Assembly: GCA_028710275.1 (NCBI GenBank)
Contig: JAQTUL010000001.1
Span: 73,031-137,030 of the forward strand
DNA: 64,000 bases
Origin: Candidatus Colwellbacteria bacterium
Lineage (GTDB): Bacteria > Patescibacteriota > Minisyncoccia > UBA6257 > Colwellbacteraceae
Reading direction: 5' to 3'
The notes under the pieces: generated by a model
Seen by the model: the letters and a program-made list of their open reading frames with translations, nothing else
What the model was told of the DNA's origin: nothing
The model's database searches: none
Shown here: positions 6,033-59,807 of the stretch, one piece after another
Numbering within the stretch: the stretch's first letter is position 1
Layout of the letters: the number at the start of each line of letters is the position of its first letter
Made by a program: the position numbers and the translations under genes

Positions 6033-6036
6033 TATT

Positions 6037-6062
6037 CTTTTATAACATTTCAGTTATAAAAG
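6037..6062 (+). terminator. 3'-end hairpin of the glycosyltransferase gene (10-bp stem)
   Basis: 'cttttataac atttca gttataaaag' lies 5 nt after the stop. Confidence 0.5.
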
Positions 6063-6090
6063 AAGAGACGAAATTATCTCGTACACGAAC

Positions 6091-7910: not shown

Positions 7911-8561
7911 ATGATTGCATATCATAAAATGGACAAGATCATCTCATTATTCAGAAAGAGAGGAGGTTCAGACTACATTGGAGAACCTGTAACACAGGAA
8001 CAACATATGGTTGGTGCAGCTCTCATCGCGGAGGAGAAAGGATATTCAGATGATCTTATTGTCGCGGCTCTTCTACATGATATAGGACATCTTCTCTTCG
8101 AAAATGAAAAAATGGGCGATCTCGGCGTGAAGGGTCATGAAAAGATTGGTGCAGATTATCTCCGTGGGCTCGGTTTCAACGAAACGGTATGCGATCTTGT
8201 TGAAAATCATGTGAACGCAAAACGATATCTCTGTACCGTGTCACCATTGTATTCGAAAAATCTATCCAACGCCAGTCGGAAAACATTAAATTATCAGGGA
8301 GGACCTATGTCAAACAAGGAGATTTGGGAATTTAGAAAACGCCCCCGATTTGAAATGTACATCGATCTTCGAATAGTCGATGAGTTGTCAAAAGAGTCCG
8401 ATATGAAAGGTAGAGATTTAGAGTATTTTATTCCTCTTTGTGAGCGATGTATGAAGAATAAAATAAGAGCGATCTATCCCGGAAATAATTCTTGGGAACG
8501 TGTTCAGATTGATACCGAACCTACAGTTGATAAGTTTAGGGGATCACATTCCATTCAATAG
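7911..8561 (+). CDS. HD-domain phosphohydrolase
   Basis: 'HMVGAALIA...AALLHDIGH' HD motif plus the downstream His/Asp residues of the HD superfamily. Confidence 0.75.
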   Translation: MIAYHKMDKIISLFRKRGGSDYIGEPVTQEQHMVGAALIAEEKGYSDDLIVAALLHDIGHLLFENEKMGDLGVKGHEKIGADYLRGLGFNETVCDLVENHVNAKRYLCTVSPLYSKNLSNASRKTLNYQGGPMSNKEIWEFRKRPRFEMYIDLRIVDELSKESDMKGRDLEYFIPLCERCMKNKIRAIYPGNNSWERVQIDTEPTVDKFRGSHSIQ

Positions 8562-8961
8562 CGGATGTCTTTCCTGTTGAATGACAGATGTGATTGAGGA
8601 AGGAGAGTTTCTCTGCAGCAATCGGAACCCACACTTTGGGATTGTCTGGACCCGGAACGTAATCATATTGAATTTCTACGAGTTTGTTCCATACTACGGC
8701 TTGAAGTTTCAAGCCGTGACTGAACTTCGAATTCTTGAAAATCTCTCGATCGATGATATAATCGTACAACTCTTTTGCTATACGCACCTTGTTATCCTTT
8801 CCCCGCGTAGTTTCAATTTCAACAAGTTTCTTCTTCATAAACTCAATCATCTCTACACCTTCCTTCTCCTCATGTGGAGTTGTCACAGGATATAGAGAAT
8901 TTCCGATATTCTCCGGAAGAATCGGTTTCAGAGACATCTTGAATGTGAAGTTGGATATCAT
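8536..8961 (-). CDS. Hypothetical protein
   Basis: 141-aa ORF convergent with, and slightly overlapping, the HD gene. No motif. Confidence 0.4.
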   Translation of the reverse strand: MISNFTFKMSLKPILPENIGNSLYPVTTPHEEKEGVEMIEFMKKKLVEIETTRGKDNKVRIAKELYDYIIDREIFKNSKFSHGLKLQAVVWNKLVEIQYDYVPGPDNPKVWVPIAAEKLSFLNHICHSTGKTSAIEWNVIP

Positions 8962-9030: not shown

Positions 9031-9603
9031 TTAATATCTTCCAACGTGATTAGTCTTGATAAAAATCCAACAGCAGCAAATAAGAATTCCGAAAATACAC
9101 GCGAGAACAATGAGAGCAATCTCCCACCCGGGCATTGCCTCTACTTGAGCCGCCCAATTCTGTTTACTGAGAATTGTGTTCAACATCAATGCTGAAAACT
9201 GTACACATCCCTCTTGAGACAGACCAATTGCTTGTGATGTCGCGGTCATATGATTCCAGTTCGATGACGTTACTGCACAGGGGAAGTTTCCCTTCCAATC
9301 AGAAATGGTGATCGCTTGTTTGAACGCAGAGACCACACTTTCAACTCCGATACTCTGAACATAGTTAAATTCATCGACTGAAGACGCATCAGAATCTACC
9401 GCAGAAACAGTAACATATGCTCGCGCAACGACGATATTACTTGATGTCACATAGGCCTGTCTACAGAAATAGAGATTCTTACATTCATCTACTATGTCAT
9501 ACCCGGTGAAAATAGTTGTGTTACTATCTACTTTAATGTAACGATCGAGAGCGTTAACTCTATACACGCAGAGTACTAGGAGGAGAAGAATTCTTGAAAA
9601 CAT
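9031..9603 (-). CDS. Type I membrane protein (signal peptide plus C-terminal TM anchor)
   Basis: N-terminal 'MFSRILLLLVLCVYRVNA' signal-like segment and C-terminal 'IALIVLACIFGILICCCWIFI' helix, with a Cys-containing ectodomain. Confidence 0.5.
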   Translation of the reverse strand: MFSRILLLLVLCVYRVNALDRYIKVDSNTTIFTGYDIVDECKNLYFCRQAYVTSSNIVVARAYVTVSAVDSDASSVDEFNYVQSIGVESVVSAFKQAITISDWKGNFPCAVTSSNWNHMTATSQAIGLSQEGCVQFSALMLNTILSKQNWAAQVEAMPGWEIALIVLACIFGILICCCWIFIKTNHVGRY

Positions 9604-21591: not shown

Positions 21592-21646
21592 TTATAAATA
21601 TACAATATTGTATATTTATATACTAATTGCGATCAATTTCAGTGGT

Positions 21647-34199: not shown

Positions 34200-34564
34200 C
34201 AAACCAGTTTCCAGTCTTTCGAACTGAAATTGGACTATATCTTAAGCATGTCGGATGACACACCCATTCCCGTTTAGTCTCTGAACCTTCTCCGTATCTT
34301 TTACGATTTAGGAGCTTGGCTGCGGATTGTCCATTGTTCATCTTTTACGTTATTACTGTTCCGTAGGTCGTTACCCCCGGTCTCACTCAAGGATTTCTCA
34401 ATGAGGATAGTAGTAAAAGCTTTAGGAGTTTCCCGCAATTTGAGGATGTTGCAAATAGATGATCTATTCACTAGTAGATTATATCTGGGGACAATTTACA
34501 CTGTTTATCCCGAATAGTATATTGTCCAACTATTCGAGCAGTCTACTGTTTTCGGCCAACATTA
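34200..34564 (-). mobile_element. Group I intron 1 in RPB1 (365 nt, no ORF), homologous to intron 2
   Basis: P1: 'uucggu|' pairs with the IGS 'gccgaa'. It shares the same about 300-nt core as intron 2 (94% identical over plus 34237-34456 versus 32800-33018). P9: 'cagttcGAAAgactg'. Omega-G lies before 'cgacaacca'. Confidence 0.7.
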
Positions 34565-37015: not shown

Positions 37016-37570
37016 TTACAGGTCTCTATTCCGGATAATAGAGAGAATCTCCTCTTGAGCCTTTATCTTCTCCTCCAACTCATCTTTGAGTTTTCTTTTC
37101 TGGGCAGTACTACCCAACTCTTCATCCATCTTCATGAACTCCTTAAGTTCCCCAACGATCCTGCTATTGATACCGGATAGTTCGCTACAAGTCTCCTCTT
37201 TCAGGAGTTGAGTCTCGATTGGGATTTCGGTAATTGCTCCATCAAGAACGTCGGTGGTGATAAAATCCCCAAAGTATTTTGTACTGTCTGTGTCGTCTAG
37301 AATATTGACAGCCGCATCCTTATTAAACGAATCATAAACTTTGGTTTTTATTGAACCGAAAAAACTCATTATCATTCCACGGGTCGGCTTTGTTGGTAGT
37401 TTTGGTATTATAATCGATACGTCTAAACGATCCTTGTAGTAACGCATTGTTTGATCGAATAACAAAGCGTTTAATGTGTCTCCCGTTTCTGAATCCGAAA
37501 TCCCTTGTAGATCTCTGTATGTGGATAAACCGATATCATCCAATATTCTCAATGATTGAGCCGAGTTCAT
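37016..37570 (-). CDS. Hypothetical protein
   Basis: 184-aa ORF with a coiled-coil C-terminus. Confidence 0.4.
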   Translation of the reverse strand: MNSAQSLRILDDIGLSTYRDLQGISDSETGDTLNALLFDQTMRYYKDRLDVSIIIPKLPTKPTRGMIMSFFGSIKTKVYDSFNKDAAVNILDDTDSTKYFGDFITTDVLDGAITEIPIETQLLKEETCSELSGINSRIVGELKEFMKMDEELGSTAQKRKLKDELEEKIKAQEEILSIIRNRDL

Positions 37571-37606
37571 TTAATAATATAAGATATTATTAAAGTTGAA
37601 ATGAAT

Positions 37607-39232
37607 CTATTCGAATATGATGTCAGCGTACTTATGAAATAGATTGTCGACATCAATCTCTGTGATCTTATTTCTCTCATCGTCTCCGTCATAATAGAGT
37701 TTTACTACACTTAGGAGATAAGGTGGTGGATGTAACATTGAGGATTTTATTAAGGAGACCAATCTCTTCTTTCTTGTTAAAGTTATTCCAGCTCTAACTT
37801 TATTTTTACCTGAGTCAGTATATCCGTCGGGATTGAAACGGATAAATAGAACATTTGGTCCACCGATTCCCTGTTGAATATTCACCATTCTCGCTGTCTC
37901 ACATTCATCAGCGTAACTCGAGTGTTGGTTCTCATCCACTTCTATAACTATGTAGTGTGTCTCACAATCGATTAGAAAGTCTGGTCGGTGTTTGTGACAA
38001 CTGGGATCTGAAGTCTTATCGTGGATGAAATCTATTTCCGATTCCTCTAGGAGAGTTTTTACTTTCAACTCCTTCTCGTGTCTGATGGTCGTAATATCCA
38101 CTTTAGCACAGATGTTACACATCTTAGAGTCCGATTTAATAAAGAGTACCTGATCACAGATCATACAGTTAGCTTCAGAGATTTGAATATCATCATCTAG
38201 TTTGTGTTCGCCACATCGAAGCGGATATGAATCATCTTTGTCTGTATAGTTCGGTGTCTCTTTACATATTTCATGTTCACATTTGGGTTTATTCTTTGTG
38301 TACATGTTAGGAGTTCTATGTTTAGCGCATGATGTTTTCTGTTGAAAGAGAAGACCAAACGTTGCTCGTGTACCACATTTAGGGTGAAGACATATTTTAT
38401 GTTTTACATCCACATAATCGGCTTGTTTATGAGCTGAACAAAATTCAGCAATTTTACTACCTGGTTTTCCAAACACAGGTAGTTTATTACACTCGGAATA
38501 AGAACAAGTCTTATTCTTTACATCCTCATAATCGGCTTGTTTATGGGCTGAACAAAATTCAGCAGTTTTACTTCCTGGTTTTCCGTAATTGGGTATTTTA
38601 TTACATTCGGGATAAGAACAAGTCTTATGTTTTACATCCACATAATCGGCTTGTTTATGAGCTGAACAAAATTCAGCAATTTTACTTCCCGGTTTTCCGT
38701 AATTGGGTCGAGTGAGACATCCTGGACTGATACAAGTCTTACTCTTTACATCCACATAATCGGCTTGTTTATGAGCTGAACAAAATTCAGCAATTTTACT
38801 TCCCGGTTTTCCATAAACTGGTCGTGTACAACATTCGGAATAAGAACAAGTCTTATTCTTTACATCCACATAATCGGCTTGTTTATGAGCTGAACAAAAT
38901 TCAGCAATTTTACTACCTGGTTTTCCAAACACAGGTAGTTTATTACACTCGGAATAAGAACAAGTCTTATTCTTTACATCCTCATAATCGGCTTGTTTAT
39001 GGGCTGAACAAAATTCAGCAGTTTTACTTCCTGGTTTTCCAAATGTAGGTATTTTATTACACTCGGAATAAGAACAAGTCTTATTCTTTACATCCTCATA
39101 ATCGGCTTGTTTATGGGCTGAACAAAATTCCGCAATTTTACTTCCTGGTTTTCCAAATGTAGAATATTTATCACATCCATCATATTTGCATATACGAGAC
39201 ATTTTTGATACCATTTCTAGTTTATTTCTCAT
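37607..39232 (-). CDS. Zn-ribbon repeat ('2-cysteine adaptor'-like) protein with a C-terminal PD-(D/E)xK nuclease domain; paralog of 17392..18972
   Basis: Eight near-identical 39-aa repeats of 'KTCSYSECNK.P.FGKPGSK.AEFCSAHKQADY.DVKNK'. C-terminal 'RPDFLIDCETHYIVIEVDENQH'. Confidence 0.65.
   Translation of the reverse strand: MRNKLEMVSKMSRICKYDGCDKYSTFGKPGSKIAEFCSAHKQADYEDVKNKTCSYSECNKIPTFGKPGSKTAEFCSAHKQADYEDVKNKTCSYSECNKLPVFGKPGSKIAEFCSAHKQADYVDVKNKTCSYSECCTRPVYGKPGSKIAEFCSAHKQADYVDVKSKTCISPGCLTRPNYGKPGSKIAEFCSAHKQADYVDVKHKTCSYPECNKIPNYGKPGSKTAEFCSAHKQADYEDVKNKTCSYSECNKLPVFGKPGSKIAEFCSAHKQADYVDVKHKICLHPKCGTRATFGLLFQQKTSCAKHRTPNMYTKNKPKCEHEICKETPNYTDKDDSYPLRCGEHKLDDDIQISEANCMICDQVLFIKSDSKMCNICAKVDITTIRHEKELKVKTLLEESEIDFIHDKTSDPSCHKHRPDFLIDCETHYIVIEVDENQHSSYADECETARMVNIQQGIGGPNVLFIRFNPDGYTDSGKNKVRAGITLTRKKRLVSLIKSSMLHPPPYLLSVVKLYYDGDDERNKITEIDVDNLFHKYADIIFE
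38330..39180. repeat. Near-identical 117-bp tandem repeats (x7-8) encoding the Zn-ribbon adaptor units
   Basis: 'aatcggcttgtttatgagctgaacaaaattcagcaattttact...' recurs with very few mismatches. Confidence 0.75.
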
Positions 39233-42200: not shown

Positions 42201-44245
42201 TAGAGAATATTCTTAGCTGCGCGTTTAGAAAGCCATCTACCACTCATCTTACCGGCTTTAGTATCTATCTCTCTGTACTTCTCAACCGTTTTCGGATCTT
42301 TGGCGTGATTTAACATATTGTCCCACAGACTATTGAGAAGAACAGTTCCCGCTCCAAATCCTATGACTCCGTAGACTATCGAGGTTTTGGCTAGATCTAG
42401 ATACTGATCTAGACTTGTTATCTGTCCTGATCGTCCGGAATACATAGCTAAGAGAGTCGGTGCAATAACCGATAGATACATCTGAGTGTGAGATTTGAGA
42501 AAATTAGTGGTCTTTGATGTCATCCAATTAACAGGAATACCCAAGAAGAATTTAGCTATCTTCTTATCCTGATACAAATTCAGAAGAATCTTCTTTGCAA
42601 ACTCATAAGCTGAGAGATCCTTGGTTGTCATCTTAATATAGTTCAGCATAGTTACCAGAACAGTTTCCATTCCTCCAAAGACTGAAATATTCTTTATTAT
42701 CGTTTGATGTATCTTGTCCCATGACAGAGGAGTGACTTCGGTTAATCGATCAACCATCGATATAAGTGTCTCTTTCGATGGTAAACCGTAACCTGTTTCC
42801 GACATATCCTTGTTTATAAAGAGACTGAAAAATTCTCTAAAGTACGGCATGACATTGATAAAGGAATTATAACATGCGACCATACAGAAGATTCCCGGTA
42901 TAGCATAAACTCCAAACTTCCAAACTATGTTACAAGTGTTGGCTACTCTCTTAACTATAGCCAATGGAATGGTTACTGGGTTGAGATATTTCAAAGGTCC
43001 TTCATTCAGGTATTTTAACGGTCCTATTGGAACAGAGGAAATCTTTGTGTAGATAGTAGTAAAGACACACTCCGGAAGATTTGCAATCCAATCTAGAGGA
43101 AGCATGACCTTTGATAGAATTCTGGAAATGGTCAGGGCTTCTTTTGTTGGCTCCATAAGATTTTTTATTGTCTCTCTATCCATACCCTGACCATAAGTTT
43201 TTGCTAGATCATCCGCTCTATGCTTAGAGAGTCTCGGATCGATAAACATCATTGTGACATCAAACACAAGACTAGCTGAAACTACAAATCCTCTACCGAG
43301 ACTGAGATGTGTTGCTGCCATATCTTTCACACAATCCATACATCCGATGAGAGGACTCTTCCACAGCGTATACATAATATTATCCCATGTGGTTTCACCT
43401 GAATCCTCTTTTATATTTTGATATGTGTCGTAAGCACTAAACATCATATAAATCGGAAGTGATCCTAATATCGCGCTTCCTCCAGAAAGTCCCATCGATG
43501 TAATGGTTGCTGAGACTACCCAGGTCTTTGCCGATTTGTATACAACACCCCCCATTGTGAAGTGGAAGAATTTGTACATGGAATTAACGTTGTTAAAATA
43601 CGATAGTGCCGAAGAGTTCTGATTGTAGAGAACTGAGTTACCCACATCATTAAAAAACTTTCTAAGTGTTCGAGTCTTCTTGTTAACAAAGATAGCCGAT
43701 GATTTCATTAGTATTTTAGTATCACCCTTTTGGATAAGATCGTTTATTTTTTTCTCCTCTGCATACTGATCATTATCTGCTTTGACCGCTCGGTTAAAAG
43801 ACCTGCGGAAGAACTCAATCTTATCATTAGAATCCTTTAATGTTGAGACGATTGTTGAGGCTAATTCCGGTTGAACAAATCTGTAGTCCCGAAGACGATT
43901 GATATCCGGTGTGTAAGTGTATCTGTTTGTGTTTAGAAAATCCTTCATCTCTCTTTTTGTTGTGATATCTAATAACTCCGGATAGATTCTCTCTTTACGG
44001 GTGAAAGCTTTAGTTGCCCATCCAAATACAGAAAACGATTTATTTACAGGAACTATATCCTTCTCTATCTCTCTTAGTTTCTCCTCTACTTTATTCATGA
44101 TAGAAATACTCTTGATTGTTGATGTCTCTTCAACAAAGGTACTCTCTCTAATAAAAGATAAGACATCATCTCCTCCTATTGAGGAAAGGAGAACCGATTT
44201 CTTTTTATCGGAAGACGAACTTTCAGTAATGGTCCCTGACGACAT
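39239..44245 (-). CDS. Very large (1668 aa) membrane-associated protein with a coiled-coil C-terminal half
   Basis: Several hydrophobic helices in the 230-700 region, followed by long heptad-rich segments. No catalytic motif. Confidence 0.5.
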   Translation of the reverse strand: MSSGTITESSSSDKKKSVLLSSIGGDDVLSFIRESTFVEETSTIKSISIMNKVEEKLREIEKDIVPVNKSFSVFGWATKAFTRKERIYPELLDITTKREMKDFLNTNRYTYTPDINRLRDYRFVQPELASTIVSTLKDSNDKIEFFRRSFNRAVKADNDQYAEEKKINDLIQKGDTKILMKSSAIFVNKKTRTLRKFFNDVGNSVLYNQNSSALSYFNNVNSMYKFFHFTMGGVVYKSAKTWVVSATITSMGLSGGSAILGSLPIYMMFSAYDTYQNIKEDSGETTWDNIMYTLWKSPLIGCMDCVKDMAATHLSLGRGFVVSASLVFDVTMMFIDPRLSKHRADDLAKTYGQGMDRETIKNLMEPTKEALTISRILSKVMLPLDWIANLPECVFTTIYTKISSVPIGPLKYLNEGPLKYLNPVTIPLAIVKRVANTCNIVWKFGVYAIPGIFCMVACYNSFINVMPYFREFFSLFINKDMSETGYGLPSKETLISMVDRLTEVTPLSWDKIHQTIIKNISVFGGMETVLVTMLNYIKMTTKDLSAYEFAKKILLNLYQDKKIAKFFLGIPVNWMTSKTTNFLKSHTQMYLSVIAPTLLAMYSGRSGQITSLDQYLDLAKTSIVYGVIGFGAGTVLLNSLWDNMLNHAKDPKTVEKYREIDTKAGKMSGRWLSKRAAKNILYTYHYLSSNLIVEWIDQSVNRMKNKVAGGMIEWVEVNYGRKSFIYDSNFTWLSNRLVMDEYFSQAMSSSMIDVLSNVDTIMTLESESNSYKGVKLDKEKIRKVIDERKEMDIRNRAIEIANQKLFNDEKGDLFDNKEEIRLKLVSLNSKMSKVNPVGELLEKQRELILQRVTMENNLRIASKALDDVVNKIELSQSKVSQIDFIQKYYEKNERLWDNPTTEMVNENAKMQTASIVINKFIPFINRADPTALAALESDARTQYNIVHNRMKEYTENIAILEASSKNILANLPDNASEKLENLNTMYTDVVQRFNKDEGLHDHIEYMQAINEIVIRQQSLEMALGGSDIDSFYQSNKRLSSIKKTQDLFLKDIPTTRYLVDPSIIEKVKTGEGGYGSLDPEIDRLLEEYRLTGEKKVVVESSESRGWLSGIYDKFENYTVEQIRKGMRNIVGYGMTKKREGIRRLQELKTMEESLKENNPRDIKGLQEIQNLRDQELRTLSTVDTLVTSEIKHIQVLVPEMKPVTEEDKRFVQAFSSLKKSVGFERVKEIDRQIDFDIGIDTTTDYDYDIIYEKAFGDDSSFPSSYSGEELQEIQSFDKVINLMTGVKVLSDAFGLVQYDCPDPPQSSCLNRNAFVTSIPEEVIKEIDSITDDIYQKISNLGIEGTTQDKKTIIANNLMLMWITPEYRSRLSKFEMSSKSVNLLHTVMKQSSTVMNSGRMFDEHLKGKDLDWSNPHVLYLLSKKTYHMDYITGILLRSNFKEYLKRESELLTKKDSLFEEETKQYEKLHQMTEDYNKNNGNVFTDIKARGEPTVTETWSSTISNYVANMVGSIFGSIGLGGITQGIDWIRVQINKSRDGREKNTIKEQYLSKLEEVDNLIVKDSIRTQVDTWYSAAERVDAITGKIKYEKNLMNLNYQTEDKSLRYVQRTLEGSDMSGVLSPSEDEILHMFFADDESGLKSKYVRDSGITFPNRVLEIERAVRIIGEIK

Positions 44246-44247
44246 CT

Positions 44248-44269
44248 ATTGTATAATTAATTATACAAT
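44248..44269. promoter_or_regulatory. Perfect 22-bp palindrome 'attgtataattaattatacaat' between genes
   Basis: Read directly. It sits 2 nt upstream of the 1668-aa gene start and 140 nt 3' of the gene 44409..44822. Confidence 0.4.
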
Positions 44270-44408
44270 AGATTAAATAGTAATTCACTCAGAAGTATCG
44301 TTGGGATATTCAATTTCGACCAACCATCGAATGAATGAACCCATCGGACCGCTTGACGAATTTTGATTACACCAAGTACAGTAATCACTCTCGTTCTCCA
44401 ACATAAAC

Positions 44409-44822
44409 CTATAAATTTTTCCATTGTGTTTTCCAAAAGATTATTTCTCCACGACAAATACTACAATAGTTATCCAGTCTGTTGTTATGAGGACTACCGC
44501 ATAATGAACAACTTTTAGATGTATCCACTCCCAAATATTTTTTGATACAACAGTTTCCTGTTACGACAATAACACCCGTAATCTTATTTTTGATATAACA
44601 ATTCTCAGTTATTTCCTTGCTACAAATACAGGTTGTCTTATGAGAAGGAGCATTTTCATCTTTAAACTCCGTGACGAACTTAGATTTATGATACCCTGTA
44701 TCTCCTCCGATATAAATCCATTGTTTTTTGAAGTCATGTTCACTCAAATTATAGAGTGCTTCATTGAATCTTTTCGCATATCCCACTTCGTTATCATCCA
44801 CAAACTTCAAATCGGTCGACAT
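44409..44822 (-). CDS. Hypothetical Cys-rich protein
   Basis: 137 aa with CxC and CxxC pairs. Confidence 0.4.
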   Translation of the reverse strand: MSTDLKFVDDNEVGYAKRFNEALYNLSEHDFKKQWIYIGGDTGYHKSKFVTEFKDENAPSHKTTCICSKEITENCYIKNKITGVIVVTGNCCIKKYLGVDTSKSCSLCGSPHNNRLDNYCSICRGEIIFWKTQWKNL

Positions 44823-44890
44823 GTTTGATGACCCATTTTATCGTTAACATACAATCATTTTTAATATTGTTTATTAACATTATAGACAAT

Positions 44891-45301
44891 ATGAGTATAT
44901 CTCTTGATCAGAAGGCATGGGAATCGCTTCCGAAAACAAATCCTAATTTTTACAAAGTCCATTCACAAACGGATATCATGGCTGATCTGTTTGAGATCGT
45001 TGAACGTGATACACCCTTCTACAGATTCCCATCACATGAAGGTGGATATAACGAGAAGGAGAGAGATATTATCAAAGATTGGTTCATGTCTGTTATTGAA
45101 GGAAAAGATTATTCTGCGAACGTAAAGGGGATGTTCGACTGTTTCATGGATAGACTACAAGTTAAACGAAATCTCAAACTCTTACAAACATACAAAGCTA
45201 AGATCTACTCCAAACTTAAAGAGCATCAGACTCTCGATCGGGAGGTGAGTCTGTTAGCCTCTAAATCTGAGACTAATTTGGAAGAGATTCGTGAGTTTTG
45301 A
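44891..45301 (+). CDS. Hypothetical protein (start taken at the internal ATG at 44891)
   Basis: Begins 'MSISLDQKAWESL...'. The upstream part of the track ORF is hydrophobic junk that overlaps the neighbouring gene's start. Confidence 0.4.
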   Translation: MSISLDQKAWESLPKTNPNFYKVHSQTDIMADLFEIVERDTPFYRFPSHEGGYNEKERDIIKDWFMSVIEGKDYSANVKGMFDCFMDRLQVKRNLKLLQTYKAKIYSKLKEHQTLDREVSLLASKSETNLEEIREF

Positions 45302-45329
45302 ATTTAAGAGTTTATTTGTGACTGATCCG

Positions 45330-45420
45330 GTAGTTTCGCAAATTCCGTGAAATTTCACGACTAAACCGGAAATTCCACGACTAAACCGGAAATTTCGCGG
45401 AATTCCGCGAAATTTGCGAA
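45330..45420. repeat. Repeat array 'tttcgcaaattccgtgaaatttcacgac / taaaccggaaattccacgac x2' ending in a perfect 26-bp palindrome 'aaatttcgcggaattccgcgaaattt' (45390..45415)
   Basis: Read directly. Located immediately 3' of the C2H2 paralog 45432..46325. Confidence 0.65.
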
Positions 45421-45431
45421 ACGATAAAAAT

Positions 45432-46325
45432 CTATTTGAGAGTCTCCTCGATAATCTTTTTTCTGAAAACATTATTGTCCTTGGTGAGTCGTTTTATCTC
45501 GACATAACATTTATCGGCTCTTTGTTCTTTAATATCATCGGACGATGTTTTATCATCATCTTCACTACCGTTATCATCACTTCCGTCATCACTACCGTTG
45601 TCGTCGTCGCTTCCATTATCCTTAAATTTATAAATATTATCATAGTGTTCCTGGTTACGGTTTTTGATAGCGTCGGATACCATTTGTGTTATTCTCTTTG
45701 CTTTCGGATCGATAATAACATCTTTTGAGTCATCTTTATATTTTAACACCTCTCGAGATTTATCAGACACGATCCATGGGACCTCTCCGTTATGGGAATT
45801 TTTGACAAAATCAAGAAAAAATTTAGCAGCTCCTATTTGTCCTTGAAGAAAAAGAGTTTCATCGAAATTATCCGCGGCAGCTTGGGTCAGCTGTTCGAGA
45901 GTCGTATTGAATTGTGGTATATTAATTGTATTGGTTGTCGTTGTATTCTTTGGTTGTAAAGCAATCTTCTCAACACAGTCTTCCGCTTTAGTGTGTAGTT
46001 TCTCGAATATCTCACACCGTTTAATTTCTCCTTCAAGTTTCGTATTCAATATTGATATTTCATTTCTGAGTCTGTTTATCTCGGCATCTTTTTCCTTGAT
46101 AATTTGGTGTAGAGAATCTTTGTTATTTTTACATACGGCTTCGTGTCTGGTTTTATCATTAAGTCTCGTAAAATATTTGTCACAGAATTGACATGATATT
46201 TTAATAGGCTCTACAATAACGTTCAATTTCTTTTGGATTTCTATACAATAGTTCGCTCGTTTTTGATGCGAAATTAAAGCACTTGACGAAGAAAATGTAT
46301 TATCGCAATACCCACATCTATTCAT
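45432..46325 (-). CDS. C2H2 zinc-finger / coiled-coil protein (paralog of 16542..17390) with Asp/Ser-rich tail
   Basis: 'CGYCDNTFSSSSALISHQK' and 'CQFCDKYFTRLNDKTRHEAVC', then a coiled coil and a conserved C-terminal domain shared with its paralog. Confidence 0.65.
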   Translation of the reverse strand: MNRCGYCDNTFSSSSALISHQKRANYCIEIQKKLNVIVEPIKISCQFCDKYFTRLNDKTRHEAVCKNNKDSLHQIIKEKDAEINRLRNEISILNTKLEGEIKRCEIFEKLHTKAEDCVEKIALQPKNTTTTNTINIPQFNTTLEQLTQAAADNFDETLFLQGQIGAAKFFLDFVKNSHNGEVPWIVSDKSREVLKYKDDSKDVIIDPKAKRITQMVSDAIKNRNQEHYDNIYKFKDNGSDDDNGSDDGSDDNGSEDDDKTSSDDIKEQRADKCYVEIKRLTKDNNVFRKKIIEETLK

Positions 46326-46345
46326 TTTATATTCGTAAGTTACTC

Positions 46346-46432
46346 CTCTTTAAGGCCATTCCGCGAATTTCGCAAAATTCCGTGAGATTCCGTGAGATTT
46401 CGCAAAATTCCGTGAGATTCCGTGAACTATAA
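46346..46432. repeat. Two tandem 30-bp direct repeats 'atttcgcaaaattccgtgagattccgtgag', immediately 5' of the C2H2 paralog
   Basis: Read directly. It shares the motif 'tttcgcaaa(a)ttccgtga' with the 45330-45420 array on the other side of the gene. Confidence 0.65.
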
Positions 46433-46722
46433 GAATTTATTCCACCCATAATGTAACAGTTAAACTAAATGATTCACATTACCCAATAATAAGAGTAATA
46501 TTAGTTTACTTTTTCTCTGAAAATCTGTTTAAAATTTTCAGAGACGATCGACAAAAAACTCCTTCTGAAACCTATATTCGATCACCCCCATAAACAAGGA
46601 GATTCTATTTTTTTGCGGTGTGTCTTTCAGAGATACTACCCTTTTCCAATTCTAAAACTATTCTATAATATAATTCTCTACACACAGATATTTGTGTGTA
46701 GAGCCTATATTTCTGAAAGAAT

Positions 46723-48210
46723 CTATTCCTGTACCATCGGAATACTCAATCGTCCTCCGAACTCTGCGCATTTTTTCAATTCCTCTACTCCGATAACACC
46801 TTTCCCGAGGCATTCATGACGGTCGACATGACAATCGAATTCGCGAGCGCTATCGTTGTAGTGGATAAGTCTCGGAACAACTCCCTTCTCCTCAAGCCCG
46901 CTAAGATATTTACTCGGAAGAATTCCTGTACTCCATACATGGCAGGTATCAACACATACACCGAAACGTTTGTCATCTATCTCCCTGATGAATGAACTGA
47001 ACTCATCAAGAGTGGTTAGTGTCTCAGTTCCTTGTCCAGCCGGTGTTTCCAGCAGTAGAGGACATTCCTCTGTCGCGTACTCTAGACATTTGAGAATGTT
47101 CAGTTTCATAATCTCCAGCGCCTTCTTCTCGGTATTTCCTGTATACTTTCCTACATGAACGACAGTCCCTCTTGCTCCTATAGATTTGGAGTATGTCAGA
47201 TATTTCTGTAGACATTGCAATCCCTTATCGTTGTCCTCTTCATCAGTACAGAGATTGATAAGATACGGTGAATGGATGAAGAGAGGGATCTCTTTTTCGA
47301 GAACAGATTCGAGCATAGATGCTAAATCCCCATCGTCTAGAGAGATAGAATAGCTCTGATTTGATCCCAGGAATATCTGAGCAGGAACTCCTGGATACAG
47401 AATACTTGATGTACCCTTAACTCCGTCGACGAGAGCAACATGACTACCGATGTTGTATTGCCTCTTTACATTCCACATCAACTTCATATTCATGTCCTGT
47501 ATAAGTTTCACATCTCTCATCTCCAGGAGAAGTTCACGAAACTGTTTTCGGGTATCCCATCCGGAGATATCAAATGAGTGAACACATTTATGAAGGGGAA
47601 GTACTAGATGAAGTCGAGTATGAGTATCGGATAGACAACCATAACAGAAGAGTTGAAGGATAAAGTACAACCAACTCTTCTTGAGTTGTGTAGAGGTCTT
47701 GATCTCGAAGATTCCGGACTCTGTAACAATATCCGGATGACCTTGAACACCCTCACCGATGAACTCCACATCATACAATGGCATTTCACTCTCTTCGAAA
47801 GTCGGAACAATCTCCTCATCATCTGAATCCTCAAAGATAATCGGAACAAACTGTGAAATTTCCTTCTTGATCCAGACATTCTCAAGGCATCGACGAGTCT
47901 CCTCTATCTTCTGAACATAGTCGGTTGTCGTTTTCGACTCCTTTACCTTCTTTGGAATTTCACTCTTCATCAGTTTACAGATACTCTCTGTGGTCGGTTC
48001 AGAGAGCTTTAACATCTCTTCGGTAAGTAGACCTAAGATCGATGCTGAATTCTCTTTGGGTAGAATTTTTTTAAGAGCTGCCGGAAACACCGTCTTCATA
48101 TTTGCGAGATCCTTTGGAGCATTTCTAGCTTCCTTCGGGAGAAGTTTTTTGAATCGTTCCCGATTCTGTCTATTGAGACTATCTAGGATCTCACGTACGC
48201 GAATGCTCAT
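46723..48210 (-). CDS. nfo: AP endonuclease, endonuclease IV (Nfo) family, with an about 250-aa N-terminal extension that has a PD-(D/E)xK-like motif
   Basis: Nfo motifs 'HSPYLINL', 'VVHVGK', 'LLETPAGQGT', 'GVCVDTCHV', 'HYNDSAREFDCHVDRHECLGKG'. The N-terminal part has 'GHPDIVTESGIFEIKTST'. Confidence 0.8.
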   Translation of the reverse strand: MSIRVREILDSLNRQNRERFKKLLPKEARNAPKDLANMKTVFPAALKKILPKENSASILGLLTEEMLKLSEPTTESICKLMKSEIPKKVKESKTTTDYVQKIEETRRCLENVWIKKEISQFVPIIFEDSDDEEIVPTFEESEMPLYDVEFIGEGVQGHPDIVTESGIFEIKTSTQLKKSWLYFILQLFCYGCLSDTHTRLHLVLPLHKCVHSFDISGWDTRKQFRELLLEMRDVKLIQDMNMKLMWNVKRQYNIGSHVALVDGVKGTSSILYPGVPAQIFLGSNQSYSISLDDGDLASMLESVLEKEIPLFIHSPYLINLCTDEEDNDKGLQCLQKYLTYSKSIGARGTVVHVGKYTGNTEKKALEIMKLNILKCLEYATEECPLLLETPAGQGTETLTTLDEFSSFIREIDDKRFGVCVDTCHVWSTGILPSKYLSGLEEKGVVPRLIHYNDSAREFDCHVDRHECLGKGVIGVEELKKCAEFGGRLSIPMVQE

Positions 48211-50206: not shown

Positions 50207-50281
50207 AAGTAATATATTCCTTTTTGAATATATTACTATTTCTCTCCTTGATAGGGGTTTAGTGTGCTGGCGAATGTGTGC

Positions 50282-50825: not shown

Positions 50826-51515
50826 TCAACATTTTCTCAGCAGACCCATAAGCCCAGGGAAGACTTTCATTCCACTCTCCCAGAGCAACTCTTCGATAGC
50901 CGCTTGTCTCCGTGCTTGGTGGAACCGCCACCACCGTTCGATGGCTCGGACCGGTTGGCGGAGAACGCGAGGGTGAATTTTGGCATTTTCGATGTACCAC
51001 CCTTCACTAGTCAAGACGGCCTTCCCATCAACAACCTCACACTGTCTCCAAGCCGGGCCATCTACCCGATGAGTTATACCATTCAAACACCACTCTTCAC
51101 ATGTCAAGACGACTTGTCCGGCGACCACTTCCCACGCTCGATAAGCTGGACCATCTGTGTGATGAAGTTTCCCATTCAACCGCCACCCTTCACTAGTCAA
51201 GACGGCCTTCCCATCAACAACCTCCCACTGTCTACAAGCCGGGCCATCTATCCGATGAGTTATACCATTCAAATCCCACTCTTCACATGTCAAGACGACC
51301 ACCCCGTTAACCACCTGCCACTGTTTCCAAGCCGGACCATCAGTGCGATGACGATGACCATTCAAACGCCACACTTCATGGGTCTTAAATTCCACTTCAT
51401 CCACAGTAGTATAAGTGTATGTAGGAGTGCTCATGGTGATTGTCGGCGACAACTGTTGAATATAGGTGATATCACCTCCTATATTCCCTAAATAATCACT
51501 TTTTCTCATATTCAC
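50826..51515 (-). CDS. MORN-like (DGPA-type) repeat protein
   Basis: Six or more copies of about 23 aa: 'W.LNG..HR.DGPA...W.VV.G..VLT.EEW'. Confidence 0.6.
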   Translation of the reverse strand: MNMRKSDYLGNIGGDITYIQQLSPTITMSTPTYTYTTVDEVEFKTHEVWRLNGHRHRTDGPAWKQWQVVNGVVVLTCEEWDLNGITHRIDGPACRQWEVVDGKAVLTSEGWRLNGKLHHTDGPAYRAWEVVAGQVVLTCEEWCLNGITHRVDGPAWRQCEVVDGKAVLTSEGWYIENAKIHPRVLRQPVRAIERWWRFHQARRQAAIEELLWESGMKVFPGLMGLLRKC

Positions 51516-52016: not shown

Positions 52017-55000
52017 TTAAATCAGAGGCTTAGTTTTATGATTCTCCTCATCATCACTACTATCATCGTAATCACTACTCTCATCATCTTCCGATACCTC
52101 TTTGATCTCTACAGCCTTTACTTTCTTCACCGGTGATTTTTTCACCGGCGATTTCGTGTTTCGTTGTGGACTCTTTGGTTTCTTCTTATGAAGCATCGAG
52201 AAGTCCTCTTCGACATCTTCCTCAACAACTTCCTCAGGAACCTCGATATCAAATGAATCTTTTTCCTCATTCTTATCGAGGTCCTCTTCACGAATGATGA
52301 TCGCCTTTCCCTCCTTCTCATCATCTTCCGCGGTTCTCAAACGATATCCCTTCCACTTATGACTCGGAGTAAGATCACCCCACTTCTTTGTTATCTCATC
52401 CCTCAGATCCTCCTTGGATGGAATTTGAGAATGAAGGTTAGGATAGGAATCGTCGAACCAGGTCTTGAATGAGTTGTAAGTCTCGACGACAGACATAAGA
52501 GCTTTTTCATTCGAAGGCTCATAGACAATCTTCTCCATGATGAACTGGAGGAATACGTCGTTCTGCTTACGATAAGCAGCCGTGGCTGAACGAACTTTTT
52601 CTGGTTCAGCCATACGTCCATCCTTGAGAATCTTTTTGAATGTGTCAAACATCATCCACATAAATGGAGCTTTCATTTTGGGAAGTTTATCAGTAAAGTA
52701 AGGGTCTCGTGGAAATCTCTTCAATCGAATCTGATCTTCAAGAAGCTCAGGAACATTATCTTTCGGGAAACATGCCTCATGAGGAAGAACTCGAATACGA
52801 TTCCATGTTGCGGGATCATCACATGGAAGTCTCGGAAGCTTATTACATATTAAACTAAGCTTGAACTGAGGCTTCAGTTCCTGACTTTCTTTGTACAGTC
52901 CACGATAATAGATGATATCGTTACCACTTAATTCCTTCAGAATACCGATGTTGATCACATCTTTGCTATTCGGCTCTTGAAGGACAGCAAAACGGACTCC
53001 AGGAAGACCGGCATACTCTGGAGTTGCTTGAGATGACTGAGTACGCTTTCCACTAATCAGAGAGGTTGGAAGAATCTTCATGTATCGACCGAGTGTCAAC
53101 TTAAGAAGATCCATATTAACAGACTTTGCGTTATCACCTTCACCTGACATATTAAGAAATGTCTTACTACTATTACCTCCACGAAGAAGACTTGCTGTAT
53201 ATTCCATCCAATATTGTTTCAATTCCGGATCGGGAAACACTTTCGAGAAGTGATCATCTACGTCGATAACCTCTTGACTATCCCAAGAGTACTCCTGAAA
53301 ATCGTAACCAGTCGTAAGACTGACATAATCAGTCGGTCGTCCGGGACGAAAACGCATTTCTCCGAGATCGAGAATACCGTTACTGAAATGAATAAGATTG
53401 ATATCAGAGTCCAATTTATCGATAAAACTGTCATCGACAAACAGTTCGATACAATTGTGAACCACGACACCATTTGCAACAAAGTTATGAATATTGTCAA
53501 CGGTAATATCATATACAGTTCTCTTTCCGACATTTTTAATATTGTGTACATCAACAATAAGAGATGGAAGAGTTAAACTATCTCTCTTAAAGCAATATGA
53601 AGGTCCATTATCCGAAAAGAAGAAATCTTTTACACCAATACTCTCCATATATTCAATGGGTTTAATCCCCAGTTTATACCTAATCTCACCAATATTTCTC
53701 ATATTATTAACCAATGTTGAGTATTTAGGAACCACTTTATCATTTAAGAATCTACCATCTCTAGTTTCAACGTTGAGTTTAGCTTGATCGATATAGTTTC
53801 TAAGGTTTACTCTCTTTACACCATCATATCCAGAAATTTTCTTTAATTCTTTTAGGAATTCTATTCTCTGGTTGCATACTGTATTATACATATTCGCGTA
53901 AGAACATGCTGCTGTTAGTTTCAATAATTTATTTGTACAATAACGAAATCCAATATTATCTGAAAACAAAAGAATATCCCGAAAACTGACATCAAATTCT
54001 ATTTCATACAGATCACGATTTTTAACCTTTCGTTTGGATTGAATATTAACATTGGATACTCCACATTTAGAAAACATTTTTACTATATCATTCATCATAA
54101 TTTGAAGAGACTCCACATGCTCTCCACATTTAGATTGTGAAAATCCGACAGATGTTATAACATTCGAATTTGTGACTACATTTGCGTGGCCATCTCCACC
54201 CATAAGTCCTCCCAGAAATTCTCTGATAATAGGAATAGGGCAATCATCTGTAAGAAGAAATTCCGGAAGAGTAGATTTTTGAACCGATCTTCTACCTAAA
54301 CTTATTCCAGGAATAAGAGCAATATTTTTACTCACACATGAAGGAATTGCTACACCATAAGTCCACCCTTTTGTTTCTTCATAAAAACTACTATGATTGT
54401 TAGTTATTTTTGGTCTCTTTCCACAGAGAATTTGTATGTCATCCACAAAATTATTTGCATCAATTAAAGATCCTAATGAGACATTTGCATTAATAATATT
54501 AGTCGACTTGTTATGAATTATAGTTTCGTCAGATAACATTAATCCGATAATTCGACTGAAAATTAGAGATTTTTCATATTCAGATTGTGTATCGGTTTTC
54601 AGAGTGAGAGAACCAAAAGTTGTAGTCCAGCCGTCACATAATTTCATATCATTCACGACACTAATTTTGACACCTGTGATACTAGTTCTCACTTTATCAA
54701 CACCCGGTTTCAAATCACCAGAGAATACCCATCGTCCGTCAGAAGTAAGAATTGGATGATCATGTGTTGAAACAAGTTTGGTTCCATCGGAAAGCATCAA
54801 TTCTACACAGTCCTTTTCTCCTTTGTTCATAAAATTGGTCTGTCTTTCGTTCAATATTCCATTCATATTTTCATCCCACCCAATAAGTCTATTTGTATTA
54901 TTATTTAGTTCTTCGATGGGAACACTCAATCCGTTACTCATTGTTACATACGTACCCGCGCTGATACATTCAGCGATAATATTATTTTTGAACGGTGTCG

Positions 55001-56492
55001 ATTTCAAGCTTGCAATAATTTTATTAACTGTTTTCAAACGCTTCTGAAGTTCAGCATCATCATCTTGTGAACCCATATCCTCACAAACCTTCTTCTTCAT
55101 GTTCTTGTATTCATTAACAAGTTCCGTAGAGATCTTTCGTCTCAAATCGATACCCTGTTTATTTACAACCCATCGGTGATTCTTATAATGAAACCACACC
55201 TTCTTTTCAGGACATGCACACACAAATTCACCTTTATATTTATTATGAAGCAACTTGGCCATATCGTAGTGTCCTCCGTTGAGAGACTCGTTGAATAATC
55301 GATCGTTATCCTTCCTTTGAATCTTTTTATACTCTTCAGGACTATCAATCTTCGCGTAATGATAGAGACTTCCGATAGTACGATTTCTCTTTTCCATACG
55401 CTCCCATTGATACACACATCCGGCCTCTGAAAAATTCTTCTTAGAGGTCTTGGATGAGAACTCAATCCACATATCAAGTGCGTCCTCTGTACCATCTCCA
55501 ATATTGAATAGGACCCATCCAATATCTAACCAGTCGTCGAAGTTGTCTGCGCGAGATGAAGAGATAAGTTTCATCAACTCTCGCGCCTTCTTAAGTGCTT
55601 CAGGAGTAGGCATATCTTCGAACAGCTTCTTACTCTCCTTCGCCTTCTTGAGAAGTTTCTTGGTGATAATGTTCAAGTCGGCTTTCACTGTGATGGGTTC
55701 TCGAGTTCCCGGATGAATAGAGAGAATTCGTGGAAGATAGTACTCGAGTGGATGTTCATCCATTTTTACCGGATCACCATGTACATCAGTCAATTTAAAA
55801 TCACTTAATGCCTCCTCTAGAGAGATCTCGTTACAGTCATCATCAAAAACCTTAGTAACCTTATAGGATTGAAGATACTCCTTCTTTCGAGATCCATACA
55901 GAAGCCAGAACTTTGAAGTACAACTCTTATCAATCACTTCCTCAGACTTGATAACTCCAATATCTTTGAAGAGATCCTTATCTGCTACCTCCTTTCGAAC
56001 ACGAGGGATAAGATGAACATCCTGATCAACCTTGTGCATAATCGCATTGATAAAATGTAAATGAAAACCGTGCTTAATCTCCTCCTTTGTTTTGTCGTAT
56101 GTTGGATGTTCCTTTTCTAGAACGACACAGACACCATGTCGTTTCTCGTAGTTCTTCACAGTCTGCTTCAGATGTTTTTGGTAAATCATTGCTGTCTGTC
56201 TAATATGTGTGTCTTTGTAAAGTTTTTTATCAAGAGGATGTTTGGCTGGATCATACGACAATTTAATATCCGAATCATTGAGTACAGGAAGAAACTCACC
56301 CGGACGTTCTGCGAGGCCGGATACCATCTTCGGATTACTGTACATTGTATCACAATAAAGTTTCCACCACTCCTCATCATCTTTTCTTGTCAAGTTATAT
56401 TTCCCTGTAGGTTGAATCTGTGAAACATGAGTGTAGTACCCCTCACCTTTTTCTTGACGTGTAGCGATGAATTTTCGAAGAGAGAGATCCAT
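52017..56492 (-). CDS. D5-like primase-helicase (AEP primase plus SF3 helicase) interrupted by an intein
   Basis: N-terminal primase region 'KHGFHLHFINAIMHKVDQD'. Helicase region after the intein: '…NMSGEGDNAKS…' (Walker A-like), 'FAVLQEPNS', 'PQFKLSLICNKLP'. Confidence 0.8.
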   Translation of the reverse strand: MDLSLRKFIATRQEKGEGYYTHVSQIQPTGKYNLTRKDDEEWWKLYCDTMYSNPKMVSGLAERPGEFLPVLNDSDIKLSYDPAKHPLDKKLYKDTHIRQTAMIYQKHLKQTVKNYEKRHGVCVVLEKEHPTYDKTKEEIKHGFHLHFINAIMHKVDQDVHLIPRVRKEVADKDLFKDIGVIKSEEVIDKSCTSKFWLLYGSRKKEYLQSYKVTKVFDDDCNEISLEEALSDFKLTDVHGDPVKMDEHPLEYYLPRILSIHPGTREPITVKADLNIITKKLLKKAKESKKLFEDMPTPEALKKARELMKLISSSRADNFDDWLDIGWVLFNIGDGTEDALDMWIEFSSKTSKKNFSEAGCVYQWERMEKRNRTIGSLYHYAKIDSPEEYKKIQRKDNDRLFNESLNGGHYDMAKLLHNKYKGEFVCACPEKKVWFHYKNHRWVVNKQGIDLRRKISTELVNEYKNMKKKVCEDMGSQDDDAELQKRLKTVNKIIASLKSTPFKNNIIAECISAGTYVTMSNGLSVPIEELNNNTNRLIGWDENMNGILNERQTNFMNKGEKDCVELMLSDGTKLVSTHDHPILTSDGRWVFSGDLKPGVDKVRTSITGVKISVVNDMKLCDGWTTTFGSLTLKTDTQSEYEKSLIFSRIIGLMLSDETIIHNKSTNIINANVSLGSLIDANNFVDDIQILCGKRPKITNNHSSFYEETKGWTYGVAIPSCVSKNIALIPGISLGRRSVQKSTLPEFLLTDDCPIPIIREFLGGLMGGDGHANVVTNSNVITSVGFSQSKCGEHVESLQIMMNDIVKMFSKCGVSNVNIQSKRKVKNRDLYEIEFDVSFRDILLFSDNIGFRYCTNKLLKLTAACSYANMYNTVCNQRIEFLKELKKISGYDGVKRVNLRNYIDQAKLNVETRDGRFLNDKVVPKYSTLVNNMRNIGEIRYKLGIKPIEYMESIGVKDFFFSDNGPSYCFKRDSLTLPSLIVDVHNIKNVGKRTVYDITVDNIHNFVANGVVVHNCIELFVDDSFIDKLDSDINLIHFSNGILDLGEMRFRPGRPTDYVSLTTGYDFQEYSWDSQEVIDVDDHFSKVFPDPELKQYWMEYTASLLRGGNSSKTFLNMSGEGDNAKSVNMDLLKLTLGRYMKILPTSLISGKRTQSSQATPEYAGLPGVRFAVLQEPNSKDVINIGILKELSGNDIIYYRGLYKESQELKPQFKLSLICNKLPRLPCDDPATWNRIRVLPHEACFPKDNVPELLEDQIRLKRFPRDPYFTDKLPKMKAPFMWMMFDTFKKILKDGRMAEPEKVRSATAAYRKQNDVFLQFIMEKIVYEPSNEKALMSVVETYNSFKTWFDDSYPNLHSQIPSKEDLRDEITKKWGDLTPSHKWKGYRLRTAEDDEKEGKAIIIREEDLDKNEEKDSFDIEVPEEVVEEDVEEDFSMLHKKKPKSPQRNTKSPVKKSPVKKVKAVEIKEVSEDDESSDYDDSSDDEENHKTKPLI
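53454..54968 (-). mobile_element. Intein (505 aa, canonical Cys...His-Asn/Cys) with a LAGLIDADG homing-endonuclease domain in the D5 primase-helicase
   Basis: Starts 'CISAGTYVTM', block B 'THDHP', LAGLIDADG motifs 'RIIGLMLSDETI' and 'FLGGLMGGDGHA', ends 'FVANGVVVHN|CIELF'. Confidence 0.75.
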
Positions 56493-59743: not shown

Positions 59744-59807
59744 TAATAGTATCGAAGACCTAAAAATTCATTTGTTCATTTTATAACTGAAAACAGTTAT
59801 AAATTTG

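Follow-up and report, generated by a model that had tools for sequence, protein, structure and literature searches.

The 64,000-nucleotide (nt) stretch of contig JAQTUL010000001.1 analysed here, referred to as the window, contains a gene for a protein with two zinc fingers that is flanked on both sides by arrays of the same short motif. An earlier note on this DNA had described a shared motif arrayed 5' and 3' of the gene at 45432..46325, and this was confirmed, with 10 of the 13 matches to ATTYCGYRA in the window falling in the two flanks of the gene (about 90 nt each). The features of the locus are listed below, with a strand for the genes and the promoter-like element (aa, amino acids; bp, base pairs; ORF, open reading frame).

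45432..46325, minus strand: finger-protein gene, an intact 297-aa ORF
46347..46354, minus strand: promoter-like element CTTAAAGA, in the family TTAAA[GA], at a fixed distance from the ATG
46358..46426: 5' array of seven head-to-tail 10-bp units, ATTYCGYRAR
46514..46544: leader inverted repeat TCTCTGAAAAT..ATTTTCAGAGA, its TTTCAGAGA block conserved in the leaders of relatives
46676..46703: leader hairpin CTCTACACACA..TGTGTGTAGAG at -373 from the ATG, marking the far end of a leader of ~370 nt that accompanies the gene family
45333..45422: 3' array of nine units in strict 10-bp register, of the same motif family as the 5' array
45349..45396: 20-bp direct repeat in 2.4 copies (GAAATTYCACGACTAAACCG), inside the 3' array
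45390..45415: perfect 26-bp palindrome AAATTTCGCGGAATTCCGCGAAATTT with a 13-bp stem, 17 nt past the stop codon of the finger gene
44825..45301, plus strand: convergent neighbour gene (158 aa), which shares the 3' intergenic region with the finger gene

The 5' array is composed of four copies of TTCCGTGA, two of TTTCGCAAA and one of TTCCGCGAA, and extends from -33 to -101 relative to the ATG, where it abuts the promoter-like TTAAAG element. Analysis of 46358-46426 with Tandem Repeats Finder returned a period of 30 in 2.3 copies and a period of 10 in 4.9 copies. The long tandem units reported previously as two perfect 30-bp repeats are real, but their identity is 29 of 30 positions, since 46367-46395 and 46397-46425 are 100% identical over 29 nt and differ at the 30th base (G/A). 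The 13 matches to ATTYCGYRA in the window compare with 5.9 +/- 2.6 expected, a number that none of 100 shuffles reached, and the exact variants TTCCGTGA, TTTCGCAAA and TTCCGCGAA are restricted within the window to the two flanks of this gene. No cluster of the motif was found in a further 8.5 kb past one window edge, and the viral contigs scanned for it gave no match.

The 3' array nearly fills the 130-nt gap between the two convergent genes and consists, in order, of TTTCGCAAA, TTCCGTGAAA, TTTCACGACT, AAACCGGAAA, TTCCACGACT, AAACCGGAAA, TTTCGCGGAA, TTCCGCGAAA and TTTGCGAAAC, with an outer 28-nt inverted repeat (45333-45360 and 45395-45422). The perfect palindrome of 26 bp noted previously in this array was found again, at 45390-45415. 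The two arrays had also been described as having the same orientation, which is true of the seven 5' units, all of which point one way, but not of the 3' units, whose orientation is mixed.

The encoded protein

The 297-aa protein comprises, in order, two N-terminal fingers, a coiled coil of ~70 residues (about residues 55-122), a conserved alpha/beta domain (143-233), an acidic linker and C-terminal helices. Its finger ligands are invariant in the family alignment (C4 C7 H20 C27; C45 C48 H61 C65). The earlier designation as a C2H2 DNA-binding protein holds insofar as finger 1 passes the Pfam zf-C2H2 model (PF00096; 28.0 bits against a cut-off of 25.2), but the ligand set is CCHC and so departs from the Cys-Cys-His-His pattern of classical C2H2 fingers; the fingers are a variant of the C2H2 fold, not strict C2H2. 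The profile of the family alignment matched the fingers of ZBTB38 (E = 1.4e-4) and CTCF (E = 2e-3), and matches to known structures were confined to the fingers (residues 3-66), where the DNA-binding C2H2 fingers of CTCF, ZBTB38 and Tramtrack were found. An AlphaFold2 model of the protein had a predicted local distance difference test score (pLDDT) of 79. The fold search gave no known fold for the conserved domain that follows the coiled coil, and the whole predicted fold resembles giant-virus C2H2 proteins of Marseillevirus LCMAC, Fadolivirus, Indivirus and Yasminevirus (BFVD; Foldseek E = 1.5e-9 to 1e-4).

Private arrays across the protein family

The protein belongs to a large family (1,774 clusters at 50% identity, E <= 1e-10), of which 224 loci were confirmed in IMG/VR giant-virus contigs, several per contig. 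For the comparison of upstream regions we used gene models from 52 distinct homologous loci on many giant-virus contigs, with control ORFs taken from the same loci. At nearly every family locus the stretch from about -30 to -140 contains a repeated motif specific to that locus, so that motifs differ across the family. Within the 150 nt upstream, a median of 59 positions were covered by repeats at the 52 family loci compared with 22 at 125 control ORFs (p = 4e-11). A tandem repeat was present upstream in 43 of the 52 family loci and had a period of 10, 11, 20, 21 or 30 bp in 40 of these 43, as against 11 of 43 in the controls (Fisher p = 1e-10; 40/52 and 11/107 when counted per locus, p = 5e-17). 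This contrast is understated, because at least one of the controls is an unrecognised tandem paralog that carries its own array. Periods that are multiples of 10-11 bp fit binding to one face of double-stranded DNA. Among four samples carrying an identical homolog, array copy number was constant.

The window itself contains a second member of the family, likewise with an array of its own.

16542..17390, plus strand: in-window paralog, 282 aa, 30% identical to the 297-aa protein
16458..16538: private array of the paralog, TTGATMAMYR units (TTGATCAA-type) with 10/20-bp periods

The paralog's array is an inverted repeat with a 26-bp stem that ends 4 nt 5' of the paralog's ATG. When the 46 genes of the window were ordered by upstream repeat content, the two family members took ranks 1 and 2, the array of the paralog being the highest. 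The earlier note had considered that the motif of the finger gene might be ubiquitous in intergenic DNA irrespective of the neighbouring genes; it is instead private within the window, and the paralog has the different, TTGATCAA-type motif. In its leader (16207-16452) the paralog has nine TCCGAA motifs and a palindrome with a 13-bp stem, GGTTTTCGGAGATGATCTCCGAAAACC (16405-16431); close relatives (L001, L004, L211) have similar TCCGAAA clusters in their leaders, but the family at large does not.

The family arrays stop just 5' of a TTAAA[GA] element fixed at about -25, which was found at -25/-26 in 22 of the 52 family loci and between -24 and -30 in 34 of them, and which, like CTTAAAGA in the window, is presumed to be the core promoter. 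Further upstream, a CACACA..TGTGTG hairpin occurs within 450 nt of 19 of the 52 family genes, compared with 14 matches in 277 kb elsewhere, and in the close clade it is fixed at -354 to -382 whichever gene is the upstream neighbour. It begins the conserved leader of ~370 nt that goes with family genes at L001, L003, L004, L005, L007 and other loci. In the window this hairpin, CTCTACACACA..TGTGTGTAGAG, is the sole one of its type and lies 20 nt past the stop codon of an apurinic/apyrimidinic (AP) endonuclease gene. It may act as an insulating terminator or mark where a divergent non-coding transcript ends. Literature searches retrieved no published description of such arrays, and the family-wide pattern of private arrays appears to be undescribed.

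The syntenic ortholog and close homologs

On a Joint Genome Institute (JGI) contig (L001) an ortholog of the finger gene stands between the same two neighbours, the convergent gene (79% identical) and the AAA ATPase gene (81% identical), and the RPB1 of this contig is 85% identical to that of the window; the finger protein is only 57% identical. The 5' array of L001 consists of three copies of ATAAAATCACATTTTTTCAG, and its 3' intergenic region contains repeats and a perfect palindrome of ~54 bp. Of the nine copies of YCACATTWT in the 12,963 nt of L001, five lie in the 3' region, three make up the 5' array and one is elsewhere. Both flanks thus changed motif jointly with the position of the gene kept, which speaks for a single trans-acting reader of the two flanks and against a mobile cassette.

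The closest homolog (L211, 63% identical) has four to five units of AGATTTCGYC, a core close to that of the window gene but in inverted orientation relative to the gene, which would fit the orientation independence expected of a site in double-stranded DNA. In L211 the leader is duplicated past the stop codon and is followed there by a different array. L004 has two family members in tandem. In a distant relative (L053; 1575-1730 and 2433-2465) array and promoter are triplicated, one copy standing before a truncated family-gene start and another before an unrelated 185-aa ORF; the latter may represent promoter capture. Such cases show that the family expands through local tandem duplications in which leader, array and gene are copied together.

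A small mobile or amplifiable cassette, of which the arrays would be the ends, had been suggested previously, and in line with this idea the same motif stands on both sides of one gene and the family is multicopy and often tandem, with a conserved leader of ~370 nt bounded by a hairpin. However, in a related virus the gene occupies a syntenic position between the conserved neighbours given above, no transposase, integrase or nuclease domain or fold match was found in the 297-aa protein (Pfam, fold search), and no target-site duplication is visible in the sequence around the gene and its arrays. Moreover, the arrays at the two flanks consist of phased units in tandem and not of terminal inverted repeats, and array motifs vary from copy to copy, as the ends of a transposon family would not. 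An exact 8-mer test across the family found sharing of the motif between 5' and 3' flanks to be specific to the window gene, and a more sensitive 7-mer test added just L001 and L082, sharing being absent in most of the 39 scorable loci. The suggestion is thus not supported and we regard it as extremely improbable; the feature is real and non-random, and it is not a mobile element.

The 3' array and the hairpin rule

In Mimiviridae, viral transcripts end at palindromic hairpins, a regularity known as the hairpin rule (Priet et al., 2015; PMC4402537). The window is giant-virus DNA (see below) and its virus obeys a rule of the Mimiviridae type. Of the 34 perfect hairpins in the window with a stem of at least 10 bp, 24 are intergenic, with intergenic DNA making up 12% of the sequence, and 15 of the perfect hairpins sit within 30 nt past a stop codon. 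These post-stop palindromes are perfect and AT-rich and lie 0-30 nt past the stops (for example 6035-6064, 21593-21620, 37570-37594, 50208-50237 and 59780-59803), and as in Mimiviridae it is the structure that is conserved and not the sequence. The palindrome at 45390-45415 sits at this generic 3'-end position, a point that the earlier note had overlooked, and when the 3' intergenic region is folded as RNA both strands fold far better than shuffles (z = -4.3 and -4.0). The palindrome is very probably a hairpin-rule signal, predicted to serve as the 3' end of both convergent genes. In contrast to the other hairpins of the window, which are AT-rich singletons, it contains GC, is built from the motif of the 5' array and lies inside a phased array of 90 bp.

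These observations could be taken to mean that the 3' array is a hairpin-rule terminator of the convergent genes and nothing else, made from a duplicated piece of the 5' array, so that the 5' array alone would be regulatory. The distance of 17 nt past the stop codon, shared in kind with 14 other 3'-end hairpins of the window, and the strong folding of both RNA strands agree with this reading, as do the short AT-rich palindromes that most family members have past their stop codon, ordinary ones without motif sharing, and the duplication of an array documented nearby in L053. Yet nine motif-like units that keep strict 10-bp register over 90 bp go far beyond what a hairpin needs, and a joint change of the 5' and 3' motifs in the syntenic ortholog would be unexpected if the 3' copy needed only to be palindromic. 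A role as terminator only is possible, although in our view rather unlikely. We think that the 3' array is also bound by the finger protein, because the nine-unit phased array exceeds the needs of a hairpin and because of the concerted motif change in L001, but we hold this with less confidence than the corresponding reading of the 5' array.

Contact residues and recognition code

At the 12 presumed base-contact positions of the fingers the mean pairwise identity was 27.5%, compared with 44.9% in the rest of the protein, and 92 of 105 pairs had the lower value at the contact positions. When the window protein is compared with its syntenic ortholog, only 1 of the 12 contact positions is conserved, as against 63% identity elsewhere. 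The contact residues are the fastest-evolving part of the protein. In addition, a fixed and crude canonical recognition code (helix positions -1, 3 and 6) was applied to the fingers, and the repeated part of each member's own array was compared with the arrays of other members. Triplets predicted for finger 2 were enriched in the own array (mean z = 0.50, p = 0.0006, n = 48), and with one locus per distinct triplet (n = 22) the result was positive in 20 of 20 draws (median p = 0.012); for finger 1 the corresponding value was p = 0.03. In the window protein the finger-2 helix RLNDKTR predicts GCG, a triplet found in the TTCCGCGAA and TTTGCGAAA units. Classical C2H2 fingers recognise sequences in double-stranded DNA through helix positions -1, 2, 3 and 6, and of such recognition by the family the triplet enrichment is an indirect sign.

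Proposed explanation and alternatives

The explanation that we favour, with somewhat better than even confidence, is that the arrays are cognate operators of an autoregulating two-finger protein and that the 3' array doubles as a hairpin-rule terminator. Of the possibilities offered previously, that of dense transcription-factor sites with autoregulation is the one favoured by the comparative evidence, namely private phased arrays, hypervariable contact positions, own-array triplets and the joint motif change in the ortholog. The 297-aa product would be a coiled-coil and probably dimeric DNA-binding protein with the flanking arrays as its binding sites. Several molecules could assemble on one DNA face of the seven TTYCGYRA units, which follow one another at intervals of one helical turn, and thereby control transcription of their own gene. 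As to the sign of this control we lean to repression, since the sites border directly on the core promoter. The 3' array would combine the same sites with the generic 3'-end hairpin serving both convergent genes, and protein bound there might form a loop with the 5' array or prevent antisense read-through. Once a gene has been duplicated, the array motif and the contact residues of the fingers would change in step, giving each copy a private pair of regulator and operator. The sequences show the anatomy of the locus, the association across the family, the helical phasing, the hypervariable contact positions, the joint motif change in the ortholog and the place of the hairpin; physical binding, the sign of regulation and looping are matters that we infer.

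Several points weigh against this explanation. Arrays on the 3' side are not a feature of the family. The recognition-code signal is modest, with many loci scoring zero and a z of 0.82 for the window gene, and the canonical docking of CCHC fingers with a long inter-finger linker is an assumption. Motif similarity correlated with similarity in the rest of the protein about as well as with that of the finger helices (Mantel r 0.32 and 0.30; partial r 0.22 and 0.20, respectively); because this analysis could not separate the fingers from general relatedness, a co-variation of fingers and motif beyond shared ancestry is treated here as suggestive only. No second target of the motif was found in ~72 kb, and a regulator with itself as its only target would be biologically odd. 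In a scan for same-genome targets of a 15-mer from another member's array, the matches listed were random ones on unrelated contigs. The array could in principle lie within a long 5' untranslated region (UTR), and finger 2 has a sub-threshold match to zf-C2H2_jaz, a family of fingers that bind double-stranded RNA (20.6 bits against a cut-off of 22.6).

The Mantel result also bears on the possibility that the arrays are read by some other factor, that is, by another paralog in a cross-regulatory cascade, by a general viral factor, or as curved DNA acting as a promoter-upstream element, and that their association with the finger genes reflects co-duplication alone. Leader, array and gene duplicate as a unit, so that linkage alone could yield the association, and curved DNA also shows the 10-bp phasing typical of A-tracts. 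On the other hand, the motifs are private and very diverse, so that no single general factor could read all of them, finger-2 triplets are enriched in the own array and the contact residues evolve fastest. Moreover, the duplicated leader of L211 is conserved while its array differs, which would indicate selection on the array itself. Another reader is in our judgement unlikely.

If the finger protein instead bound the arrays in RNA, as sites in the 5' and 3' UTRs, it could autoregulate its translation or message stability. Situated between the stop codon and the terminator hairpin, the 3' array is probably transcribed, the long conserved leader could be a 5' UTR, and finger 2 has the weak match mentioned above. 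However, spacing in multiples of 10-11 bp is a property of double-helical DNA, the inversion of the core in the L211 homolog would alter the RNA sequence, the fixed position of the TTAAAG element at -25 points to a short 5' UTR with its start downstream of the array, and a search of Rfam gave no family match. We find action in RNA very hard to credit.

Very unlikely as well, in our estimate, is an iteron-like pair of protein and array for replication or for genome segregation or organisation, of the kind known from plasmid Rep proteins with their iterons and from ParR with parC. Helically phased direct repeats do adjoin the gene of a putative binder here, but an initiator or partition domain and an origin signature are not found with them. 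Neither an initiator nor a helicase or partition-ATPase domain was found in the protein with Pfam, hhalign and the fold search, a comparison with the D5 primase of the window by hhalign gave nothing, and the cumulative GC skew of the window has no turning point at 45-46 kb. The distance of the arrays to the promoter-like element and to the ATG is fixed.

Instead of acting as ordinary gene regulators, the family as a whole might form a genome-wide 'private address' system, in which each paralog would read its own array alone and coiled-coil multimers would bridge arrays, such as the 5' and 3' arrays of the finger gene, thereby folding or anchoring the genome in the manner of CTCF or ParR, marking landmarks for replication or packaging, or telling self from co-infecting relatives. 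This proposal is speculative and we consider it quite unlikely. If it were true, the co-divergence of fingers and arrays would reflect selection against cross-recognition.

The genome of the window

The assignment of the window to a giant virus (nucleocytoplasmic large DNA viruses, NCLDV) rests on its gene content, which includes a D5-type primase-helicase with an intein, a split RPB1 with an intein, mRNA-capping-related genes and EsV-1-7 repeat proteins. The neighbouring AP-endonuclease gene (46723-48210) is deposited as MDD4930623.1, 'MAG: TIM barrel protein [Candidatus Colwellbacteria bacterium]' (MAG, metagenome-assembled genome), on a contig of 152,625 bp. Given the giant-virus gene content and this deposit, the contig appears to be mis-binned, that is, a viral contig probably placed in the MAG of a candidate-phylum bacterium, and we flag it as such.

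A number of further features of the window were observed. The motif AAAAATGA recurs 20-60 nt 5' of many start codons (8536..8961, 9031..9603, 9669..11687, 17392..18972, 44409..44822 and 46723..48210) and is likely to be the common, early-type promoter of the virus; the finger family has TTAAAG at -25 instead. RPB1 is split over two ORFs (29855-32833 and 34562-36394) that lie ~1.7 kb apart with another gene in between, and the intein in its C-terminal part has a LAGLIDADG domain; the D5 primase-helicase that also bears an intein is at 52017-56492. An ORF at 526-1560 with NUMOD4 and HNH_3 domains is homing-endonuclease-like and adjoins a TFIIS-type zinc-ribbon gene. In-frame tandem repeats in coding sequence have units of 72 nt x 11.4 (28800-29623), 114 nt x 6.6 (38403-39157), 45/90 nt (22020-23425) and 93/186 nt (50996-51378), the 114-nt repeat being that of an EsV-1-7 cysteine-rich repeat protein. 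At 44244-44273 a perfect palindrome of 30 bp, ATCTATTGTATAATTAATTATACAATAGAT, overlaps the start codon of a gene for a 1668-aa protein and lies 136 nt past the stop codon of the upstream gene.

Significance and comparison with known systems

Apart from a few promoter motifs that genes share, almost nothing is known of how giant viruses control the transcription of individual genes. If the finger proteins do autoregulate through private operators, the family would offer dozens of natural pairs of protein and motif that are open to direct testing, a natural dataset for the recognition rules of two-finger proteins, and a handle on viral regulatory circuits and on the escape of duplicated regulators from cross-talk.

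C2H2 proteins with the same predicted fold are likewise multicopy in isolated giant viruses, as represented by the BFVD matches and by pacmanvirus lostcity, which has at least 7 copies of a C2H2 zinc-finger protein (PMC11788076). Neither a function nor associated cis-elements of these proteins were reported in the literature searched. With regard to the fingers themselves, Tramtrack (PDB 2drp) and CTCF match the family in fold and profile over residues 3-66, and a site of 6-8 bp, for which two fingers suffice, would fit into a 10-bp unit. In contrast to both, the last zinc ligand in the family is Cys (CCHC), the inter-finger linker has ~17 residues, and a coiled coil of ~70 residues and a conserved domain follow.

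Autoregulated binders with phased operators or iterons next to their own gene are known from ParR and parC of plasmid R1, from iteron-binding Rep proteins and from lambda CI, which loops between OL and OR. The finger gene resembles these systems in the helically spaced short direct repeats by the promoter of the binder's gene, in the private specificity, and in two clusters that a multimer could bridge. It differs from them in that the predicted binder is a eukaryote-type zinc-finger protein of a giant virus, which would exist in dozens to thousands of diverged pairs, and from ParR/parC and Rep in that replication or partition partner genes are not present here.

KRAB zinc-finger proteins (KRAB-ZNFs) and PRDM9 represent rapidly diversifying zinc-finger families whose targets are transposons or recombination hotspots. 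Similar to these, the family described here has base-contact positions that evolve much faster than the scaffold, but it has only two fingers and its presumed target is its own promoter. The 'family A' promoter repeats of Coccolithovirus EhV-86, a large algal virus, consist of a short repeated motif directly upstream of coding sequences and are shared by many genes as a promoter class. The likeness lies in a repeated motif upstream of genes, whereas the finger family has one motif per gene.

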